A stretch of DNA of 55,224 nt. Origin: a virus. Taxonomy: Duplodnaviria > Caudoviricetes. Position 1 is the stretch's first letter. Each line of letters starts with the position of its first letter. Made by a program: the position numbers and the translations under genes. The stretch covers positions 1 through 55,224 of the IMG/VR virus record IMGVR_UViG_3300026187_000019. One strand, written 5' to 3'. Below are positions 1 through 55,224 of this stretch, in pieces. The notes below the pieces were generated by a model. The model was not told the origin of the DNA. It did no database searches and was given only the letters and a program-made list of their open reading frames with translations.

Positions 1-31
1 GATTGAGCAGAACAACGAAGTTGTCCATTTG

Positions 32-66
32 AGGCTGTAGGGTAATCCCCTACAGTCTACCTTTTC
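32..66 (+). terminator. Possible intrinsic terminator/hairpin after the 212-aa early gene
   Basis: AGGCTGTAGGG-TAATC-CCCTACAGTCT stem (one G-U pair) followed by ACCTTTTC; overlaps the stop of ORF 54481-55119 in the duplicated copy. Confidence 0.45.
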
Positions 67-69
67 ACT

Positions 70-85
70 AGTCCGATGTCGGACT
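70..85. promoter_or_regulatory. 16-bp palindrome AGTCCGA-TG-TCGGACT
   Basis: Perfect 7-bp inverted repeat; identical copies at 582, 2022, 2690 and 54204; lies just upstream of GGAG and ATG 107. Confidence 0.85.
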
Positions 86-106
86 TAACAATACGGAGTA
101 TTGAAT

Positions 107-274
107 ATGATTGATTTTATCATCGCCTTGTTTCTAATCGTCACCAGTGCAGTCATTGGACTGCTGTCTGTCATGTCACTAGCGGCTGGTGTGCCGGGTA
201 TGGGTTGGGTTGCACTTGGCTGTGTGGCTTGCTTTGTCGGTGGCTGGGTAATCATTGCAACGGAGTTGTCATAA
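107..274 (+). CDS. 55-aa two-TM membrane protein (not in ORF track)
   Basis: MIDFIIALFLIVTSAVIGLLSVMSLAAGVPGMGWVALGCVACFVGGWVIIATELS; GGAG RBS; TAATG coupling to the next gene. Confidence 0.75.
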   Translation: MIDFIIALFLIVTSAVIGLLSVMSLAAGVPGMGWVALGCVACFVGGWVIIATELS

Positions 275-516
275 TGGCTCGTAAATTCATCACCCCAATG
301 GGTCGCCACAAGCCTGTTCGTTCAAGCTGGGCGGCTATGGATACACAGGCTTTCAGCCGGTCATATGAGCCTGAGACACGGCCTGAGTTTCGGTGCTTTG
401 TGACTGGTCAAGCTGAAGCTATGCAAGCTGAGTATGAAGCGAAGCTGAAGCGTGAGGCACAAATGCAAGCCTTGCTTGACTTGAAGCAAAGGATGCTTGA
501 CAAAAATTTGCTTTAG
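274..516 (+). CDS. Hypothetical early protein (80 aa, MARKFITP...)
   Basis: Start reassigned to ATG 274 (TAATG overlap, GGAG upstream). Confidence 0.7.
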   Translation: MARKFITPMGRHKPVRSSWAAMDTQAFSRSYEPETRPEFRCFVTGQAEAMQAEYEAKLKREAQMQALLDLKQRMLDKNLL

Positions 517-526
517 TGTGAATAAC

Positions 527-562
527 GTAAATACACTTGAAACATAGTGAAAGTGTATTTAC
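527..562 (+). promoter_or_regulatory. Hairpin with GA..TAGTGA loop (copy A)
   Basis: Perfect 12-bp stem GTAAATACACTT/AAGTGTATTTAC, loop GAAACATAGTGA; TTGACA at 497-502 upstream. Confidence 0.75.
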
Positions 563-581
563 TTATATACACTACTAACTT

Positions 582-597
582 AGTCCGATGTCGGACT
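582..597. promoter_or_regulatory. 16-bp palindrome AGTCCGATGTCGGACT
   Basis: Exact copy; upstream of GGAG and ATG 617. Confidence 0.85.
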
Positions 598-616
598 TAA
601 CCAAACGGAGTTTGAT

Positions 617-889
617 ATGCAAAATCGTAAAGATGAATTGATACAAACATTGTGGGATTTGTTCAAGGATGTACACGGTGTACGTCCTCGTGGCATAGAC
701 TATGACCGTTGGTCAGTGACTGACCTTGAGTGGGAAGTAGCTATGCTACAGCGTCAGCTTGAGGATGACTTGCGCTGGGAACGTGAGCAGGAAGACCGTG
801 CAATCAATGCTTGCATGGACTGTGGTGCCAGTGACATAGCTACGGCTATGCGTTGGCTTGAGGATGCCTATGATATGGAGTGGGTGTAA
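617..889 (+). CDS. Hypothetical early protein (90 aa)
   Basis: GGAG RBS; DLFKDVHGVRPR motif seen in small phage proteins. Confidence 0.8.
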   Translation: MQNRKDELIQTLWDLFKDVHGVRPRGIDYDRWSVTDLEWEVAMLQRQLEDDLRWEREQEDRAINACMDCGASDIATAMRWLEDAYDMEWV

Positions 890-1053
890 TGTCAAAATTG
901 GATAAATTTTGTGATAAATACTATGCCATCACTGGTCTACCTTTCAGGTTTGACGGTGGCTTGTATCTTATGGACACGGATGATGATGGCAATGCTGTTA
1001 TTACAGACATTAGCCAAGCGGAGAATGATGATGCAAACCGGAAAGATTGTTAA
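889..1053 (+). CDS. Hypothetical protein (54 aa, MSKLDKFCDKYY...)
   Basis: TAATG coupling, GGAG RBS; translated by hand. Confidence 0.6.
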   Translation: MSKLDKFCDKYYAITGLPFRFDGGLYLMDTDDDGNAVITDISQAENDDANRKDC

Positions 1054-1237
1054 ACTACAAGGCAAGACCCGTCATGGCAAAAACCGTGTGAATGAACACG
1101 GCGAGTTTTGGCAGGTGCTTGACCTACCCAAGCGTATACCCGAATGGCCTACTGGTACATTCCGCTTGCAGTCTCTTGAGACTGGTGATATACGTTGGCT
1201 ATCGAATGACTTTACTGCAACCATTGTTACGGAGTAA
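1028..1237 (+). CDS. Hypothetical protein (MMQTGKIVKLQGKTRHGKNRV...)
   Basis: GGAG RBS before tandem ATGs at 1025/1028/1031; exact start uncertain. Confidence 0.7.
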   Translation: MMQTGKIVKLQGKTRHGKNRVNEHGEFWQVLDLPKRIPEWPTGTFRLQSLETGDIRWLSNDFTATIVTE

Positions 1238-1241
1238 CACT

Positions 1242-1943
1242 ATGACTTACCAAATCTTAGGCGTTGGCAATAATGCCAAGACAATCAAGGGTGATGGCTC
1301 AGAATATGTGACAGCTATCCGCTATCTCAAGCCGTTCAAGACCATGTTCAAGGGCAAGGTGCATAACCTATGCGCTATGGCTGAGACAGCCAAGTGCCAT
1401 GTCGGTTGCCTCAATACGGCAGGGCGTGGTGCTATGAACGCTGTGCAACGTGGTCGTGAACGCAAGACTATGTGGATGCTGTCTGACCCTATCGGGTTCT
1501 ATGATGCCTTGAACAAAGACATTGAGACATTCATTCGCCGCCAACTCAAGAACGGCATCACGCCGTGTATCCGTCTGGGTGGCACAGATGACAAGGGTGA
1601 CGCTATCAAGCTGGCACCAAATTATCCTGATGCACAGTTTTATGATTACACTAAAGTAATCAAACGTGCCTATCAAAAGTTGCCTGACAACTACCATATC
1701 ACCTTGTCATACAGCGAAGCCGATATGAAGTATGCTGATGCTGTGGTCATGGCTGTGGTCAAGACAGGTGTCAACATGGCTGTGGTATTCCGTGACAAGC
1801 TGCCCGATACATTCCGTGGCTTGCGTGTCATTGATGGCGACAAGGATGACTTGCGCTTTCTTGACCCGAAGGGTGTAGTCGTTGGCTTGATTGCCAAGGG
1901 CAAAGCTAAAAAAGATACGTCAGGCTTTGTGATTGACTGCTAA
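1242..1943 (+). CDS. Gene product 88-like, radical-SAM-related phage protein
   Basis: Cys cluster CAMAETAKCHVGCLNTAGRG plus IRLGGTDD, FYDYTK and DGDKDDLRFLD motifs; GGAG RBS before ATG 1242. Confidence 0.65.
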   Translation: MTYQILGVGNNAKTIKGDGSEYVTAIRYLKPFKTMFKGKVHNLCAMAETAKCHVGCLNTAGRGAMNAVQRGRERKTMWMLSDPIGFYDALNKDIETFIRRQLKNGITPCIRLGGTDDKGDAIKLAPNYPDAQFYDYTKVIKRAYQKLPDNYHITLSYSEADMKYADAVVMAVVKTGVNMAVVFRDKLPDTFRGLRVIDGDKDDLRFLDPKGVVVGLIAKGKAKKDTSGFVIDC

Positions 1944-1961
1944 ACCTCTTATGTATATCTT
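1933..1961 (+). promoter_or_regulatory. sigma70-like promoter
   Basis: TTGACT-N17-TATCTT. Confidence 0.6.
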
Positions 1962-1963
1962 AT

Positions 1964-2005
1964 GTAACATATATACTGATACTTTAGTGAAGTATATATT
2001 GTTAC
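1964..2005 (+). promoter_or_regulatory. Hairpin with GA..TAGTGA loop (copy B)
   Basis: Stem GTAACATATATACT/AGTATATATTGTTAC (one bulge), loop GATACTTTAGTGA. Confidence 0.75.
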
Positions 2006-2021
2006 TTAGATATACTAGACA

Positions 2022-2037
2022 AGTCCGATGTCGGACT
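2022..2037. promoter_or_regulatory. 16-bp palindrome AGTCCGATGTCGGACT
   Basis: Exact copy; GGAG 3 nt downstream, ATG 2051. Confidence 0.85.
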
Positions 2038-2050
2038 AACGGAGATTACA

Positions 2051-2191
2051 ATGCGTATCAGACCTATCAATCCTGTGGCGAAGGCAGTGGCACAGTCACG
2101 CCGCAGGACAGCCGTTGTGCCAGACAAAAAGAAATACAATCGCAAAAAGGAACAAGACCGTGAAAACAAAACACGAAAAGATAATGACTGA
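2051..2191 (+). CDS. 46-aa basic protein, weakly ArfA-like (not in ORF track)
   Basis: MRIRPINPVAKAVAQSRRRTAVVPDKKKYNRKKEQDRENKTRKDND; GGAG RBS. Confidence 0.7.
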   Translation: MRIRPINPVAKAVAQSRRRTAVVPDKKKYNRKKEQDRENKTRKDND

Positions 2192-2336
2192 GTTTGACCA
2201 CGATTGGAATGACTTGTCACTCTTTGAGAAATTGCCAGTGCGTAAGACTGCTAATCCAAAGCGTGACAACTGGAAGCGTGACCGCAAGGCGGCTCGTAAT
2301 GCAAAGCGTACAATGCAGGAGAAAAACTATGGGTAA
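2184..2336 (+). CDS. Hypothetical basic protein (50 aa)
   Basis: MTEFDHDWNDLSLFEKLPVRK...; overlaps both neighbours in operon style. Confidence 0.65.
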   Translation: MTEFDHDWNDLSLFEKLPVRKTANPKRDNWKRDRKAARNAKRTMQEKNYG

Positions 2337-2715
2337 GTATAGACTTTACTGGAACCTACACAAAAAGAAATGGTCACTACAAGACCGCAAGACTGGACGT
2401 GTTCAACAGCACGTTACTGCGTTCACAATGTATGACGCAAAGTTTGTTGTGCGTCCTGCCGGGCAAGCCAAGGTGCGGCGTGAGGGCAAGAAGAATGTTC
2501 ATGCCTTTGCCGTTGGCACTGCTGGCTTCCGTGATGGCATTGCTATTCGTGGTCATGGCAGACCAGTCACATACAACCCATACGAGAATGATACGTTTGT
2601 ATTCGCTGACACTGGTGAGTCAGTGACTGAGGTGCAAGCTATCTCTGTATACACTGAGAATGGTAAACCCAAAGTGTATGCAATCCCTAAGTCCGATGTC
2701 GGACTAACAAACTAA
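2329..2715 (+). CDS. Conserved phage hypothetical protein (YWNLHKKKWS...KNVHAF...YNPY)
   Basis: AGGAG RBS before ATG 2329; motif pattern common in phage proteins; function unknown. Confidence 0.75.
   Translation: MGKYRLYWNLHKKKWSLQDRKTGRVQQHVTAFTMYDAKFVVRPAGQAKVRREGKKNVHAFAVGTAGFRDGIAIRGHGRPVTYNPYENDTFVFADTGESVTEVQAISVYTENGKPKVYAIPKSDVGLTN
2690..2705. promoter_or_regulatory. 16-bp palindrome AGTCCGATGTCGGACT
   Basis: Exact copy inside the last codons of the upstream CDS, 33 nt before ATG 2739. Confidence 0.85.
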
Positions 2716-2738
2716 CCAACCATAAAGGAGATATTACT

Positions 2739-3152
2739 ATGACAACATTCAACATCGAGAACACAATCAAAGCTGGCACATACTTCAAGCGCACTACAGG
2801 TAAGAAGGGGCAAGTGCAGGGCAGTGCTGAACTGTCTGCCAAGTTCCGCAAGGTAGAAGCCTTGTATCTGGAGTTGCATGGCAAGCGTATGGGGCGTGAA
2901 GCCTTCTATGACATGTGCCTCAAGTATGCCCGTGCTACCAAGGCAGATGTTGGTGGGTACATACAGTACATGGCGCAAGACATTGCTGGCATCTTCCTCG
3001 ACAAGATGCACAAAGAGATTGGCAAAGAGGTGCGCCTAAACCGCCAACGCAAAGAGCAACGCAAGAATGGTATCACAATTCACTTGGGGACACATGACTT
3101 GAATACCATTGACTTAGCCAGAGCCAAGACTGGCAGAAAGGTAGCGGCATAA
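2739..3152 (+). CDS. Hypothetical basic protein (137 aa)
   Basis: AAGGAG RBS. Confidence 0.8.
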   Translation: MTTFNIENTIKAGTYFKRTTGKKGQVQGSAELSAKFRKVEALYLELHGKRMGREAFYDMCLKYARATKADVGGYIQYMAQDIAGIFLDKMHKEIGKEVRLNRQRKEQRKNGITIHLGTHDLNTIDLARAKTGRKVAA

Positions 3153-3325
3153 TGTATTGGGAAGTCGGTATGACAGTGGGTGTACAGGACACGGCAGTGA
3201 ATGTACACCCTGCCTCACTCACTCAGCATGGCTGGGAAAGTGCGGTTGAGTTCGCTATTGAGATGACACAAAGCCAATACCCTGACCATAGAGTAGAACT
3301 GGACTATGTTAAAGAGTATGACTGA
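3152..3325 (+). CDS. Hypothetical protein (57 aa, MYWEVGMTVG...)
   Basis: TAATG coupling; translated by hand. Confidence 0.65.
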   Translation: MYWEVGMTVGVQDTAVNVHPASLTQHGWESAVEFAIEMTQSQYPDHRVELDYVKEYD

Positions 3326-17810: not shown

Positions 17811-17881
17811 TACTATTAGGTATTGTAGCAATGCTATATATGTATTTGTTGCATGTATTAGTAAAGGAGCAGGGGATTTGA
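17807..17881 (+). CDS. Possible 24-aa hydrophobic peptide
   Basis: ATGA coupling to mazG; MILLGIVAMLYMYLLHVLVKEQGI. Confidence 0.35.
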   Translation: MILLGIVAMLYMYLLHVLVKEQGI

Positions 17882-17899
17882 TTCCCCTGTTTTTTTTTT
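17870..17899 (+). terminator. Intrinsic terminator at the convergence of both arms
   Basis: CAGGGGA-TTTGAT-TCCCCTG followed by T10. Confidence 0.9.
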
Positions 17900-20800
17900 A
17901 TCTGTACGCATCCTTTAATGCTTTACCATACTCAGCAAGGGCAAATAAGTCTTCCACACTAGCACCATCAGCAGGTCTACCCCGACTTAACAAAAACTCT
18001 GATGCCGCATTTTTACGTATATCCTTTGGTAGCCTACGGTATGCAGTCATTGCCTCAATGTAAGCAGGTGCTTCTGAGTTAATTGTGTTACCATCAGTTA
18101 ACTCTTGTTTAGCTGCTCTGATTTGAGACTTTATTAATGGTCTGATACGACTGTTAACAAACTCTTGCTCAGTCATTTCTTTCTGTAGTTCTGTATTACT
18201 TTTATATGTCTCACGAGATGCCTCTTCATAAGCCTGTGCAGCAGACACAATGCCGGGTATAATGCTACGTAGTTGTTCATTCTCAAATCTACGTACACTA
18301 GGTACTTTAGATGTGCTGCCCAACTCAAACTCAGTTAAGCCAAGGCGTTTAATATATTCACCCTCTTCACTATCTTGTGTTCTCAAGGTAAGCCCTAACC
18401 CAACCTTTAATGCTGAAGCTACTCTACTTGATTCGTCTTGGAATAGACGTTCACGATTAGGAAAGTCTGCTTCTTCTTTTGGCGACGTTGTAAAACCACG
18501 AGCATCAAAAGGTCTTTTAACTTCCTTCCCAAATGTAGAACCAAACTCTAGTGTAGGGTCTTGTGCTACATCCTTGTATGTTTCACCCCGTATACCTAGC
18601 GCACGTTCACTGTCAATTATCTGTGCAAACGGTACAGCCCAAGTAGATAGATAGTTACCTAACGCACGGCCTACACGCCTTGCTGCAACTTCATCTCTAG
18701 TTAAGTCAGAGTCACCTGCAAGCTGTACCACTTCATCTACAAGGCTATTACCTACACCTACACGTATATTAGTACCCAAGAATGTTTCTGCGAACTCTTT
18801 ACCATTCCAAAAGTCATCAAACGTACCATCCTTTATACGCTTAGTTGCTTCACCTAAGTATAGCATCTGACGTAGCGGAAACTGTGGTGTAGTATCCATC
18901 ACTGTACCATCGCCTACATTAATCTCTTTATAGTCTGCAGGTGCATCCTCACCACTACGAGCCATGTAAGCTGCACCAACTGCGCCTATACCTACTAGGT
19001 TACGTGAGATACGTTGTCTATCTTTAGCGGATAGTTTAGTGCCTTTAGGTATTTGACCCATAATCTTTTTTGTCAAGGGTATAGATGCACCACCCGCATA
19101 ATTACCCATCAACTCCATTGAGTTAAACATAAAACGTGGGAATGGCATTACAACAGTCAAACCATTACGAGTAATGAATGATGTAGCTTCTCTGAACACG
19201 CCGATGTCAGGCTGCTTTGCGTAGGTTACATCTAGTGCATTGTTAGTAGCATCAGCTACCAGTTCATTGAATGACCTAGCCCCTTTAGGACGCACTGTAG
19301 TTGAATCATTGAGCAAGTCTTTAATCTTGCCATCATTCAACGTGTCAATTAAATCAATCTTATATTCACGCTTGACTAGGCGTTCTAGTTCACCAAGGAA
19401 TGCACCCCTACGTACAAGGTATTCTTGCCAGCGGTTAGCACTGTTTAGTACGCTGACACCATCCTCTAGTTCAGATAGCACTGTATCTACACCTTTACCT
19501 AATGTTGGTGTAGCATCAGCAGCCGCTTCAGCTTCCCGTCTAGCTTTCTTTAAATCAAATTTTGTTTTAGTGTCTTTGGCACGTTGTCTAGCCGCCTCTA
19601 TAAAATTATCTACTTGCTCTTTACGTGCCATACCCCTACCAGTAGCCGCCTGTAATTCGTTAAGCTGGTTAAACATAAGGTCAAACTGCTTGGCTAGTTC
19701 AGGTCTATCCAAGATAAAGTCAACATAATCTTTGGCATCCTGTCTGTTTTCAGGGCCAAACATATACTTCATATTGGCAAAGCTATCCTTCCAGTTTTCT
19801 TTACTGATAAGAGACTTAGCACCAGCAGCAGCCTTACCACCCACACCTTTTGCTTCGCCCATATTATATAAAGCAGTATCCATTACGTTACCTAGTGAAT
19901 CCATGGGTGAACGAATACCTGCAGACTGTAGGTTACGTGCAGCGGTAGCAAGTTGAGACACCAGACCACCACGGCGTATACCTTCTAGGCGCATAATGTT
20001 ATTACGTATAGCACCTTGACGTGCCTGTGTAGCTGCACGTTGCAAGTCTTGCATCTCATTTAGGGGCCTTGCACGTTTAATCTGAGACAGCTTGTTGAGT
20101 ACTTTACCTGCCTCTGAGCCAGACCCTACAACAGTAAGAATGTAATCCTCAAAGGATACATTGTACTTGTTCAGTGTGTCGATGAGTTCGTCACCCGCTA
20201 TCAATTCTTTGTTGATAGTCAGGTCAAGTAGGTTATCTATTACAGTCTTATCATTATCAAACGCTGTAGGATACTTAGTCTTTAGGTCAGATGCTGCAGC
20301 AACTAAACCATCTAGCTTCTCTGGCTTGAGTATAGGCGCAGTAAGTGTATCACCAACGCCAGCTAGTTTAGCTGCATCATCAGCCTCGACATCACCAAGA
20401 CCTAACGCTCTAGCTGTCTCACTTCTAGTTTCTTTAAAACTTATCTCTTCAGCAGTTTCTTTACCAGCTTTACGTGCTAGTTCATCATCAACTACACGCA
20501 CACCATCTACTACAGTTGAGATAGTCTTGCCTGTCTGTTCCTCAAAGCCTACAATAAGTTCATTCTTTAAGTCTACGTTCTCCGCCGCAACTTGTTCAGC
20601 CCGTGCCGTCTTAGTTGCTATCTCTTCTGCTGTAGCTTCCTTGGCCTTGTTGATGTTCATCTTACGGTCAAGTAGTTTAGCACGGGCTTTCTCACCCCTT
20701 GCTTTTAACTTGGCTGTCTGCTTGGCTTCTCTAAATAGTTTTCTTACGGGACGCATAGCCGCTGAAGCACCGGGAACCATATTCTCCATCATTTCTAACA

Positions 20801-21488
20801 TCATACCCATATCACCAGCAAACTTCTCACCGCCTACTCTGTCCTCAAAAGGTATGTCAACTCCGACAGCTTTTAATCCTTTAGTTAAGGCTACCCCAAC
20901 ATTAGCAGTAGTGTCCGACACAGCTTCCATAGCTACAGCTAGATTTCTAATGTCTTTACCTGCTGCTTTACCAATCCATTCTACAATAGGCTGGAAAGGT
21001 TCTGCTATAGATTCCTCTATAAAGTTTTCTGGTATTACACTGCCAATATTACTAAGTTCCTCTGCTGTTTTTGCAGTACGGGCATAGTTAAACGCAGAGT
21101 CAGTCTGTTTTGACACTGTTGGTGTAGGCGCATCAATGGGTTCTAGTTTGGGGAGATAGTCCTCTGGTGCATCACCAGTAGGTACTTGAGGAACAGCCTT
21201 AAAGCCTTCAGGTACTTCACCTGTATCTACAGGCTCTGTTGAGACAGCAGTATCTAATTGCTGCCCCTGTCGTCTAGCTTTTAGTCTGTCTTTTAAAGAT
21301 ACTACAGTAGTGTCGGGGGCAGTTACAACTTCATCTTGTTCTGCTTGTGCTGCCTGTAGTCTCCTAGCCTTTAATTTATCTTTAAGACTTTGACCTTCTT
21401 CCTCATCATCCTGAATATCAGATGATAAAGCATCATCAGTAAAAGACTGCTGCCTCTTTAGTTTTAGTTGTTCTCGTAAAGAAGACAT
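17898..21488 (-). CDS. Large internal virion/ejection protein (1196 aa)
   Basis: Size, helical composition and last position in the podovirus structural arm. Confidence 0.6.
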   Translation of the reverse strand: MSSLREQLKLKRQQSFTDDALSSDIQDDEEEGQSLKDKLKARRLQAAQAEQDEVVTAPDTTVVSLKDRLKARRQGQQLDTAVSTEPVDTGEVPEGFKAVPQVPTGDAPEDYLPKLEPIDAPTPTVSKQTDSAFNYARTAKTAEELSNIGSVIPENFIEESIAEPFQPIVEWIGKAAGKDIRNLAVAMEAVSDTTANVGVALTKGLKAVGVDIPFEDRVGGEKFAGDMGMMLEMMENMVPGASAAMRPVRKLFREAKQTAKLKARGEKARAKLLDRKMNINKAKEATAEEIATKTARAEQVAAENVDLKNELIVGFEEQTGKTISTVVDGVRVVDDELARKAGKETAEEISFKETRSETARALGLGDVEADDAAKLAGVGDTLTAPILKPEKLDGLVAAASDLKTKYPTAFDNDKTVIDNLLDLTINKELIAGDELIDTLNKYNVSFEDYILTVVGSGSEAGKVLNKLSQIKRARPLNEMQDLQRAATQARQGAIRNNIMRLEGIRRGGLVSQLATAARNLQSAGIRSPMDSLGNVMDTALYNMGEAKGVGGKAAAGAKSLISKENWKDSFANMKYMFGPENRQDAKDYVDFILDRPELAKQFDLMFNQLNELQAATGRGMARKEQVDNFIEAARQRAKDTKTKFDLKKARREAEAAADATPTLGKGVDTVLSELEDGVSVLNSANRWQEYLVRRGAFLGELERLVKREYKIDLIDTLNDGKIKDLLNDSTTVRPKGARSFNELVADATNNALDVTYAKQPDIGVFREATSFITRNGLTVVMPFPRFMFNSMELMGNYAGGASIPLTKKIMGQIPKGTKLSAKDRQRISRNLVGIGAVGAAYMARSGEDAPADYKEINVGDGTVMDTTPQFPLRQMLYLGEATKRIKDGTFDDFWNGKEFAETFLGTNIRVGVGNSLVDEVVQLAGDSDLTRDEVAARRVGRALGNYLSTWAVPFAQIIDSERALGIRGETYKDVAQDPTLEFGSTFGKEVKRPFDARGFTTSPKEEADFPNRERLFQDESSRVASALKVGLGLTLRTQDSEEGEYIKRLGLTEFELGSTSKVPSVRRFENEQLRSIIPGIVSAAQAYEEASRETYKSNTELQKEMTEQEFVNSRIRPLIKSQIRAAKQELTDGNTINSEAPAYIEAMTAYRRLPKDIRKNAASEFLLSRGRPADGASVEDLFALAEYGKALKDAYR

Positions 21489-53746: not shown

Positions 53747-53775
53747 ATTATATCAGATTTTTTATAGGCTGTCAA
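53747..53775 (-). promoter_or_regulatory. Perfect-consensus sigma70 promoter of the late arm
   Basis: Minus strand TTGACA-N17-TATAAT with TG extension. Confidence 0.85.
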
Positions 53776-54044
53776 CCCCCCTTTTGCAAAATAGTTCAAA
53801 TGGTCCATACACCCCCTTACAGTTGCCTATTATTTAGGCAGTTGCACAATGCTTGTGCATATAGGTAGTGACAGTTGCTCTTGTGGTTAACAATCAATTT
53901 ACCTGATCTGTGTATTTCTGTGTATACATATCTACGCTACCCCCCGGTGGCTCCTGCCTGCCCCCTCATCTAAGGCGTGTATGCCTCTGCATTATGCGCA
54001 ACCAGCCGCCTCATTAGGGAGCCATCTGAGTAAGCCCTTGATAT

Positions 54045-54335
54045 TGCATAGAATATGCAGTAAGTAATCCGGCAATTCAGTTGTAAACAACTGTTATGGT
54101 ATCAGTTGCCATACGAAGTATGACTGTAAAAGTCCAACAATACAGATTTGTAACGAAGTTACAAGGTTGATGCATCTAATCTTTTCACCAAAGGTGAACC
54201 ACAAGTCCGATGTCGGACTACACCCCCTATCACTGAAGGTGATAGTCATACCAGCTACCACAATCTGCCAAGCCTCGCTATGTGTCACGAGTTTAGCGCA
54301 CGAGTTTCGCTATCGAAGATAGCTGCAACCGTAGG
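54045..54335 (+). other. Array of short triloop hairpins
   Basis: Stems at 54045, 54110, 54148, 54184, 54227, 54309 and 54329 with loops GAA, GAA, GAA, AAA, GAA, GAA, GTA. Confidence 0.75.
54204..54219. promoter_or_regulatory. 16-bp palindrome AGTCCGATGTCGGACT
   Basis: Exact copy embedded in the hairpin array. Confidence 0.85.
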
Positions 54336-54410
54336 CGAAACGGCTTGGGCAGAGGATCACACACAAGGCTTCAACCCCAAACCTTAACTATCTTCTTACG
54401 GTTTTAAGGT

Positions 54411-54444
54411 ATATAGCCCCTTGAACGTAGTGAAAGGGTTATAT
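54411..54444 (+). promoter_or_regulatory. Hairpin with GA..TAGTGA loop (copy C)
   Basis: Stem ATATAGCCCCTT/AAGGGTTATAT (bulge, G-T pair), loop GAACGTAGTGA; upstream of ATG 54481. Confidence 0.7.
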
Positions 54445-54480
54445 CCCTATAAAACCTAAAGATAGATAAGAGGAACCGAA

Positions 54481-55119
54481 ATGCAAAACTCAATCAAAAA
54501 ATCTTTCGCCATTCAGCTTGCTGAAGCACCAAACACAAATGAAGCCAAAGGCTTGGTATTGTCCCGTTGGGACAAGTCAATCACCAAAGGTGATGTCAAT
54601 CGCTTCAAGAAACTCTGTGAGTTTGCTGGTTTCTGGTTCACCCTTGGTGAAATCCTTGTCCGGCTTCGGACTGAATCCGGCGGTAGCCGGACTGATTCAG
54701 CTTTGCTGAAGAATGCCAACCTTCATACCGTTGCAAAGCAACGCCGTAGTGAAGCCATGAAGTTCTTTGAGAACTTCCATGTAATCGTTGAAAACGATTT
54801 GCTCGGCAAGAAATCTACGATTTGCCACATGAAGGATCTGCTGAAAGCAGTGGACAAAATCGTCAACCCAAAGGTTGAAGATGAGCCAGTCCTTGAAGCT
54901 ACTATCGTAGCTGATGAGCCAGAGGTTCTGGCTATCGAAGATAAGTCCAGCGAAGCTGTACCACAGTCTAAAAAGACTGCTGAAGATTTGGCTCTTGAGG
55001 TTCTACTGCAAGTAGAACTTAATGAGGTCAGCCTTGCTGACTTCAAGATTGCCATGGCAAATGCCATTGGCATGATTGAGCAGAACAACGAAGTTGTCCC
55101 ATTTGAGGCTGTAGGGTAA
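54481..55119 (+). CDS. First early gene, hypothetical (212 aa)
   Basis: GAGGA RBS; long ORF with biased codon usage. Confidence 0.85.
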   Translation: MQNSIKKSFAIQLAEAPNTNEAKGLVLSRWDKSITKGDVNRFKKLCEFAGFWFTLGEILVRLRTESGGSRTDSALLKNANLHTVAKQRRSEAMKFFENFHVIVENDLLGKKSTICHMKDLLKAVDKIVNPKVEDEPVLEATIVADEPEVLAIEDKSSEAVPQSKKTAEDLALEVLLQVELNEVSLADFKIAMANAIGMIEQNNEVVPFEAVG

Positions 55120-55224
55120 TCCCCTACAGTCTACCTTTTCACTAGTCCGATGTCGGACTTAACAATACGGAGTATTGAATATGATTGATTTTATCATCGC
55201 CTTGTTTCTAATCGTCACCAGTGC
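55074..55224. repeat. Terminal overlap of circular assembly (copy 2)
   Basis: Duplicate of 1-150. Confidence 0.95.

Follow-up and report, generated by a model that had tools for sequence, protein, structure and literature searches.

What is the function of a hairpin that recurs three times in the early region of a marine phage, with a different stem each time and a common loop, and that stands in the company of a repeated 16-base-pair (bp) GC palindrome? The question is raised by IMG/VR virus record IMGVR_UViG_3300026187_000019, a complete virus contig of 55,224 bases that is analysed here over its whole length and called the window. The window is a complete HMO-2011-type marine podophage, and PMC9038755 describes phages of this type as a dominant and widespread marine viral group. 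A first reading of the letters, here termed the original prediction, had placed hairpins with a common loop at 527–562, 1964–2005, and 54411–54444 and had proposed an undescribed bipartite element, with an antitermination nut/put-like site, a translational operator, or a cruciform switch as examples; these three mechanisms are still rivals. The three hairpins are located at these coordinates, and the element is conserved, structure-dependent, repeated early, joined to a palindrome and a ribosome-binding site, and without a match in Rfam.

The two-part intergenic cassette made of hairpin and palindrome is a real control signal, and not a promoter, in one subgroup of HMO-2011-type phages. Intergenic regulatory stem-loop cassettes are a known kind of thing in phages, while this family and its two-part make-up are new. 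The papers on HMO-2011-type phages that were searched contain nothing on this element or on gene control; their supplements might carry annotations. The preferred reading, to which we assign a probability of roughly 0.4, is that the cassette acts as RNA punctuation, in which a processing and stability hairpin of the ribonuclease III (RNase III) type is followed by a GC hairpin or operator. The cassette is of interest as a clear control signal in the early region of abundant marine phages, conserved by covariation, and it can be taken further with a covariance model already in hand, a candidate partner among the phage proteins, and well-defined mutants. SAR116 and Roseobacter hosts are difficult to grow, and the reader of the loop, if found, would provide a handle on early gene expression in their phages.

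Architecture of the Hairpin Element

Folding and a covariance model extend each of the three hairpins at its base into a longer imperfect one of 67–73 nucleotides (nt), of which the part first described is the apex. Element A spans 510–576 on the plus strand (apical part 527–562, loop GAAACATAGTGA), scores 38.3 bits with the model, and has a fold z-score of −6.0. Its outer stem includes the TAG stop codon (514–516) of the upstream open reading frame (ORF). Element B, at 1947–2019 on the same strand (apical part 1964–2005, loop GATACTTTAGTGA), scores 54.8 bits with a fold z-score of −4.5, and its outer stem pairs 1953–1960 with 2008–2015. Element C, also on the plus strand at 54394–54460 (apical part 54411–54444, loop GAACGTAGTGA), scores 35.5 bits and folds with −24.2 kcal/mol (z −4.5). 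It sits in the 5′ leader of the first rightward gene, called gene 1, where the base of its 3′ stem adjoins the ribosome-binding site. None of 200 shuffles folds as well as elements A, B, and C.

From base to tip, the long hairpin consists of an outer stem of 7–8 bp, a small asymmetric internal loop, and an inner stem of 12–14 bp, capped by tandem G-A, a 2-bp A-U/C-G step, and a final loop of 3–4 nt. The asymmetric internal loop between the stems is conserved and sets UAY on the 5′ side against UU on the 3′ side, or is a bulged C in type A elements; type B elements have 3 bp of further outer-stem pairing. Stems differ among the copies within one genome. The window contains 41 TAGTGA words, 24 on the plus and 17 on the minus strand, and just three of them, all on the plus strand, complete a GA...TAGTGA loop that is closed by a stem of at least 4 bp.

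Rfam gives no match anywhere in the window at gathering thresholds, and with an E-value threshold it returns only weak matches to microRNA-precursor hairpins. No T-run follows hairpins A, B, or C, and a terminator scan lists none at these sites; an intrinsic terminator is rejected on that account, and the ordinary terminator of the phage is at 17863–17896. Across the three element types there is likewise no conserved known self-cleaving ribozyme, three-frame stop cassette, small ORF, loop-to-flank pairing, or sigma-70 box within the loop or the 3′ arm.

Conservation and Covariation

HMO-2011, a Puniceispirillum phage, matches the first 8 kilobases (kb) of the window with 77% identity over 55% of the query, and several Roseobacter CRP phages are weaker matches to the same query. 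All three elements are present at corresponding places in HMO-2011, where the stems of copies A and C differ from those in the window and copy B has the same sequence. The HMO-2011 homologue of element A combines its other stem with a GA...TAGTGA loop of like pattern (GATACTTTAGTGA). Element B is 100% identical over 1948–2007 with flanks of 50–95% identity, and homologues of element C with altered stems are present in 13 aligned leaders.

The covariance model, R1, was built from five gap-free copies. It replaced RNAalifold on MAFFT alignments, which returned no structure or a partly wrong one because MAFFT misaligned the hairpin arms. A pattern scan of viral contigs yields 41 loci, one of which (L025) was left out as a duplicate of HMO-2011, and R1 finds the element in 29 of the 40 searched. 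Pattern scan and R1 together find it in at least 13 metagenome loci, among the 80 matches listed, and in none of the 80 bacterial genome loci among the matches listed. In whole phage records, R1 finds one copy each in CRP-1 and CRP-345 and no credible copy in CRP-603 (best hit 14 bits, E 0.75), CRP-2, or CRP-207. Covariance-model searching, which the original prediction had proposed as a check, recovers the element in HMO-2011, CRP-1, CRP-345, and most of the viral contigs; loop and spacing in homologous loci, named in advance as the place where the idea could fail, are both kept.

Pairing in the stems is under selection. Over 51 distinct copies, 94.0% of stem pairs are standard, against 70.5% in shuffles, and none of 500 shuffles reaches the observed value. 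Sliding one partner by 1–3 columns lowers the fraction to 30–52%, and the covariation score is 0.547 versus 0.141. The count was taken on forward-strand rows, with reverse-strand rows, identical rows, and the doubtful hit L028:8009-8077 omitted. These copies are mutually related and their alignment is fitted to the model; it is the number of different, fully complementary stems (32 distinct outer and 34 distinct inner) that plainly points to selection for pairing.

The loop behaves in the opposite manner to the stems. It is 11–13 nt long and begins with GA and finishes with GTGA in 50 of the 51 copies. Orientation is also constant, as every examined copy lies on the coding strand, ahead of a ribosome-binding site and a start codon. 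The loop had been likened to kink-turn and K-loop sites, and the part of that comparison concerning tandem GA holds, with GA predicted to face GA beside the closing stem in 50 of the 51 loops. The bulge does not fit, since the defining feature of a kink-turn is a 3-nt bulge, and here the 5′ strand has 0–1 nt between GA and the AC step and the 3′ strand has none. Kink-turn identity is not supported.

The Palindrome and Its Spacing

The second part of the cassette, the palindrome AGTCCGATGTCGGACT, has six exact matches in the window, and shuffles give 0.00. These matches are five distinct sites, because 70–85 and 55144–55159 coincide in the 151-nt overlap of the contig ends. All lie on the plus strand. 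In copy A the palindrome (582–597) begins 5 nt after the element and ends 9 nt before the GGAG (607–610) that precedes the ATG at 617. In copy B it is found at 2022–2037, 2 nt after the element and 3 nt before the GGAG (2041–2044) of the ATG at 2051. Hairpin and palindrome in this order, as first proposed, therefore describe copies A and B, but not copy C, which has no palindrome after it. The palindrome of copy C, at 54204–54219, lies instead some 190 nt before the element, within the untranslated leader, and is kept in 11 of 13 aligned leaders. Two further sites are at 70–85, ahead of the second rightward gene (ATG at 107) and after a short hairpin at 35–55, and at 2690–2705, ahead of an ORF starting at 2739, where no long hairpin precedes it.

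An exact gap of 31 nt between loop and palindrome had also been claimed, and it is present in copies A and B; in relatives the gap is close but not exact. The distance is 28–32 nt in 55 of 58 contexts (31 nt in 25, 29 in 16, 30 in nine, 32 in three, and 28 in two), and the remaining three contexts have 35, 37, and 42 nt. Its tightness arises because the palindrome trails the base of the long hairpin by a few bases (2–5 nt in A and B). The cassette as a whole occupies the entire intergenic gap: it starts no more than about 6 nt from the upstream stop codon and extends to the next ribosome-binding site.

The letters of the palindrome follow another rule than those of the stems. In CRP-1 and CRP-345 all 5–6 sites are GTCCAA..TTGGAC, one of them within gene 1, and in HMO-2011 the palindrome has a different centre, in either orientation. 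Counted over copies, the centre occurs in both orientations, as ACAG 32 times and CTGT twice, and as ATGT 20 times and ACAT three times. A palindrome that stays the same inside one genome and differs at all sites together in another implies recognition of its sequence, probably by a factor that itself differs from phage to phage.

The viral contigs L016 and L041 carry a shorter, GC-rich hairpin that has TAGTGA as part of its loop; after it come an exact copy of the window palindrome and a ribosome-binding site. This hairpin, which the covariance model does not see, may be a fourth element type.

The Question of a Promoter

The original prediction had hairpins A and B begin just after a promoter of the TTGAC kind; with a sigma-70 promoter just upstream, each hairpin would be the 5′ leader of a primary transcript. 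The words in question exist: TTGACA at 497–502 and TTGACT at 1933–1938, both on the plus strand, and TTGACT-17-TATCTT (1933–1961) scores 9/12 in a promoter scan. Both words nevertheless lie outside the element and within coding sequence, as codons of the upstream ORFs 205–516 and 1242–1943, and they are not kept in relatives, where 12–23 nt separate TTGAC from the proposed −10 hexamer or TTGAC is missing. The “−10” positions vary as well (TATCTT, TACCTT, TATGTT, TCTCTT, TGTCTT, GTTCTT), with matching changes in the 3′ arm; TATCTT in copy B belongs to the outer stem, as the 3′ half of its 5′ arm, and covaries with its pairing partner. Promoter-like sites in 1–3200 number 7 against 5.3 expected, which is chance level. 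A start at promoter spacing would fall inside the 5′ arm, so that the transcript would lose the selected outer stem. A role of the hairpins as promoter-proximal leaders is thus very unlikely.

Perfect promoter sequence is found elsewhere. A sigma-70 promoter of the form TTGACA-17-TATAAT with TG, at 53775–53747 on the minus strand, leads the leftward arm and is kept in 13 aligned relatives; a short palindrome of the CACTT..AAGTG kind lies in the transcribed leader after it. For the rightward arm, 53842–53871 is a candidate promoter, with TTGCAC invariant in most relatives and, 16 nt past it, a −10-like hexamer that is TATAAT or TATATT in several relatives and poor in the window. A TGCACAA-3-TTGTGCA inverted repeat (53843–53859), operator-like in form, overlaps this candidate.

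Proposed Processing and Stability of a Long Early RNA

The rightward early/replication operon is 17.8 kb long, and its elements are all at the operon start. Because no perfect consensus promoter is found for the rightward arm and its leader is long, conserved, and structured, transcription of the operon is taken to start in the 0.9-kb divergent control region and to yield a single long RNA, in which the elements act. The long hairpin, about two helical turns with internal loops, would be an RNase III-type signal for processing and stability. After cleavage, the upstream cistron would keep a 3′ hairpin that protects it, and the downstream cistron would have the hairpin of the GC palindrome close to or directly at its new 5′ end; alternatively, this GC hairpin would be bound by the gene 1 protein. 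The first part of the cassette, about 70 nt, is read as structure and the second, the 16-bp palindrome, as sequence, with the invariant loop implying an additional sequence-specific partner. The repeated cassette would double as an exchange junction for accessory genes.

The dimensions of the element are consistent with this proposal. Passages of PMC1540722 state that RNase III substrates typically span two helical turns and that internal loops or bulges confine cleavage to one strand, which yields protective 3′ hairpins. By the description in those passages, an inner stem of 12–14 bp with an outer stem of 7–8 bp (3 bp more in type B) reaches two turns, and the conserved asymmetric internal loop lies between them.

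Phage T7 provides a known system for comparison. Its early-mRNA RNase III signals of the R1.1 type are irregular hairpins of about two turns with internal loops that lie between early cistrons and leave a 3′ hairpin on the upstream RNA, as the element here would, and the genome studied here is a podophage with T7-like replication genes. The element differs from the T7 sites in its invariant apical loop and in having no sequence likeness to them, and its cleavage is only predicted.

Several observations weigh against RNA processing. Copy C lacks the following palindrome, and a confident rightward promoter is not identified by a scan of the window or in the 13 aligned leaders. Neither wobble counts nor strand folding separates RNA from DNA action. 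The link to gene 1 consists of seven phages, confounded by kinship, and a weak fold likeness. Metatranscriptomes supply short assembled contigs of relatives, which are unable to show RNA ends, and the four runs contain only 5–12% of sampled words. Over 1–3000 the depth of these contigs is near zero at 1901–2000 and one contig starts at 583; no conclusion is drawn from this, because assembled contigs carry no information on RNA ends and are broken by inverted repeats. The passages of PMC1540722 on Escherichia coli RNase III further indicate that loop sequence is no determinant, and RNase III alone thus leaves the invariant loop unexplained.

This last point makes a bound regulatory hairpin the main rival. 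The hairpin would be an RNA site recognized by a conserved protein or by RNA polymerase, as a nut/put-like antitermination site or a translational operator, with the loop and internal loops as the contact surface and the gene 1 protein or another early protein as a possible reader. An invariant loop on freely variable stems is the pattern expected of a protein-bound hairpin. The element is present in 1–3 copies, all at the start of the 17.8-kb operon; the base of copy C adjoins the ribosome-binding site of gene 1, which suits autoregulation; and element and gene 1 occur together in four phages and are both missing from three. The nut (boxB) sites of phage lambda and the put sites of HK022 are likewise RNA hairpins with conserved unpaired bases, in few copies near the start of an early operon. 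The machinery that such sites serve is harder to recognize. Terminator-like sites within the rightward operon number 10 against 9.6 expected, the sole convincing one being at the operon end, which leaves no terminator set of the kind that accompanies lambda nut and HK022 put. No Arg-rich N-like protein or known antiterminator family is found among the ten early proteins scanned, and Rfam holds no related family. Elements A and B lie between genes, not just past a promoter, and the element is much longer than boxB. A bound RNA site is possible, if rather unlikely.

A milder novel reading brings fixed loop and cleavage together. A loop-anchored “ruler” nuclease could bind the fixed loop and cut at the internal loop 13–14 bp away, by analogy with yeast Rnt1p, which cuts in this ruler-type manner. 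To our knowledge, no such loop-anchored nuclease is known for bacteria.

Possible Action as DNA

The element could alternatively work as DNA. A hairpin or cruciform extruded from the inverted repeat would then give the rightward arm a promoter of an unusual kind, a signal for replication or priming, or a site of recombination. Watson-Crick pairs make up nearly all of the pairing, and wobble pairs are in no clear excess (12 G-U against 6 A-C among 1093 cells outside the three outermost pairs), and the minus strand folds about as well as the plus strand, with z-scores of −6.3, −5.1, and −4.0. Wobble counts and strand energies do not discriminate RNA from DNA action. A DNA role would also suit the contrast between the perfect consensus promoter of the leftward arm and the lack of one found for the rightward arm, as well as the occurrence of the palindrome centre in both orientations, which is expected for a symmetric DNA site. 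Orientation of the element always matches gene direction, however, and a loop of 11–13 nt with mismatches disfavours extrusion of a hairpin from DNA. Action as DNA is on balance unlikely.

Position 1 of the circular HMO-2011 record (L001, NC_021864.1) is within the 5′ arm of hairpin A′. A record start inside the hairpin could be taken in favour of a DNA element, but it may be a simple assembly break; a break at the inverted repeat is the probable explanation, with a physical end as the alternative.

A more specific form of the DNA model takes phage N4 as its analogue. N4 has hairpin early promoters, and the likeness lies in three hairpins that share a conserved loop, differ in their stems, point one way, and stand where the early region begins. 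N4 hairpins are short, with a stem of 5–7 bp and a 3-nt loop, and N4 needs a virion RNA polymerase, of which none is detected here. A search of the eight largest virion proteins with Pfam and PHROGs and by catalytic motif finds no polymerase family or motif, although several large ones have no family at all and could be a cryptic enzyme; the HMO-2011 annotation lists no RNA polymerase. By this analogy, which is very unlikely to hold, the hairpins would be DNA-level promoters or switches, and the phage would supply an as yet unrecognised factor that reads them, for instance a large polyvalent protein injected with the DNA or the product of gene 1. If true, structure-specific initiation of transcription would have a second, independent example, in a globally abundant group of marine phages. 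One protein of 1196 amino acids, encoded at 17898–21488 on the minus strand, has no Pfam or PHROG family, and its protein-atlas neighbours are “large polyvalent protein” clusters (LPD38, LPD3; score 0.91), which is a lead only.

Gene 1 as a Candidate Reader of the Palindrome

Gene 1 (54481–55119, plus strand) encodes 212 amino acids, and its protein is a candidate reader of the palindrome on grounds of co-occurrence. Gene 1, hairpin, and palindrome are found together in the window, HMO-2011, CRP-1, and CRP-345, and all three are absent from CRP-603, CRP-2, and CRP-207. The gene 1 family is small, with 32 representative clusters. A profile search of Pfam, PHROGs, NCBIfam, and PDB finds no family, and in the protein atlas the sole annotation is DUF3102, carried by 29% of one cluster's members.

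The predicted structure of the protein (mean confidence, pLDDT, 82) has no Foldseek match at E ≤ 0.001. In a wide structural search, residues 48–135 of the model resemble KorB (Z 4.3 and 4.2), VirB (3.7), SopB (3.5 and 3.4), and P1 ParB (3.5), all below the trustworthy level. This likeness to DNA-binding domains of the KorB/ParB type is weak though repeated, and is a lead rather than a finding. KorB/ParB operators resemble the palindrome in comprising several copies of a perfect 14–16 bp palindrome over a few kb, and the co-occurring phage protein, gene 1, may share a weak fold likeness with their DNA-binding domains. Gene 1 differs in lacking the ParB N-terminal domain, and its fold scores are under the level that separates a relative from chance. 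The comparison concerns the palindrome only, which could equally be an RNA hairpin.

The loop of the hairpin at 35–55 (equal to 55109–55129) contains the stop codon of gene 1, and a T-rich stretch comes after the hairpin. A different, equally paired stem occupies its place in HMO-2011, and the hairpin may be a weak terminator or attenuator following gene 1.

The Cassette as a Mosaic Junction

One cassette precedes many unrelated genes. Crude clustering by N-terminus groups the genes downstream of 89 element instances into 30 clusters, and the cassette marks sites where these phages swap accessory genes. An element that serves mainly as a recombination module would present homologous patches for such swaps and have little or no regulatory role. 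Promoter-early stem-loop (PeSL) cassettes of T4-type phages are described as gene-shuffling sites of this kind in PMC4122927 and PMC2839356. As they appear there, PeSLs are likewise short, repeated, composite early cassettes before variable small genes at mosaic junctions. The components of a PeSL are a sigma-70 promoter of consensus type and a terminator stem-loop rich in GC, whereas the present cassette has no conserved promoter and no T-run. The present cassette has instead a long AT-rich hairpin with a fixed loop and a separate palindrome.

Two observations in the window suit exchange at the cassettes. Identity to HMO-2011 is highest in the cassettes and drops to 40% directly after cassette A, and one contig from an RNA library joins 105 to 633, skipping the stretch between two cassettes of palindrome and ribosome-binding site. 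Homology alone requires neither pairing nor a fixed loop, yet both are selected, and a recombination role is compatible with any of the other explanations. That exchange is the main function of the cassette is quite improbable.

The commonest gene after element B in relatives (24 + 7 + 3 of the 89 instances) is ORF 2051–2191, which encodes 46 amino acids, rich in Arg and Lys, with a weak match to DUF7230 (E 0.0012).

Genome Layout and the Leader of Gene 1

Rightward genes on the plus strand run from 54481 through the end overlap to about 17810, and leftward genes on the minus strand run from 53551 to 17898, with the 0.9-kb control region between the two arms at their divergent side. At their meeting point, the terminator at 17863–17896 is bidirectional and has a T-run. 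The first 151 bases of the window are repeated at 55074–55224 with one 1-base indel, an extra C at 55100 in the second copy, as would be expected if the genome, of about 55,073 bp, is circular or terminally redundant.

The leader ahead of gene 1 contains further repeats and hairpins. The word CAGTTGC occurs 4–5 times in 53821–54112, an inverted repeat lies at 54078–54093, and a 25-base block at 54088–54112 is invariant in 13 of 13 aligned leaders; the repeats in this region could be iterons or activator sites. Small hairpins at 54184–54198, 54227–54245, and 54310–54324 have stems that differ in a compensating manner from those of HMO-2011 and other relatives, which suggests that the region is transcribed and structured. 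The approximately 300 nt ahead of element C may be a single structured leader RNA.

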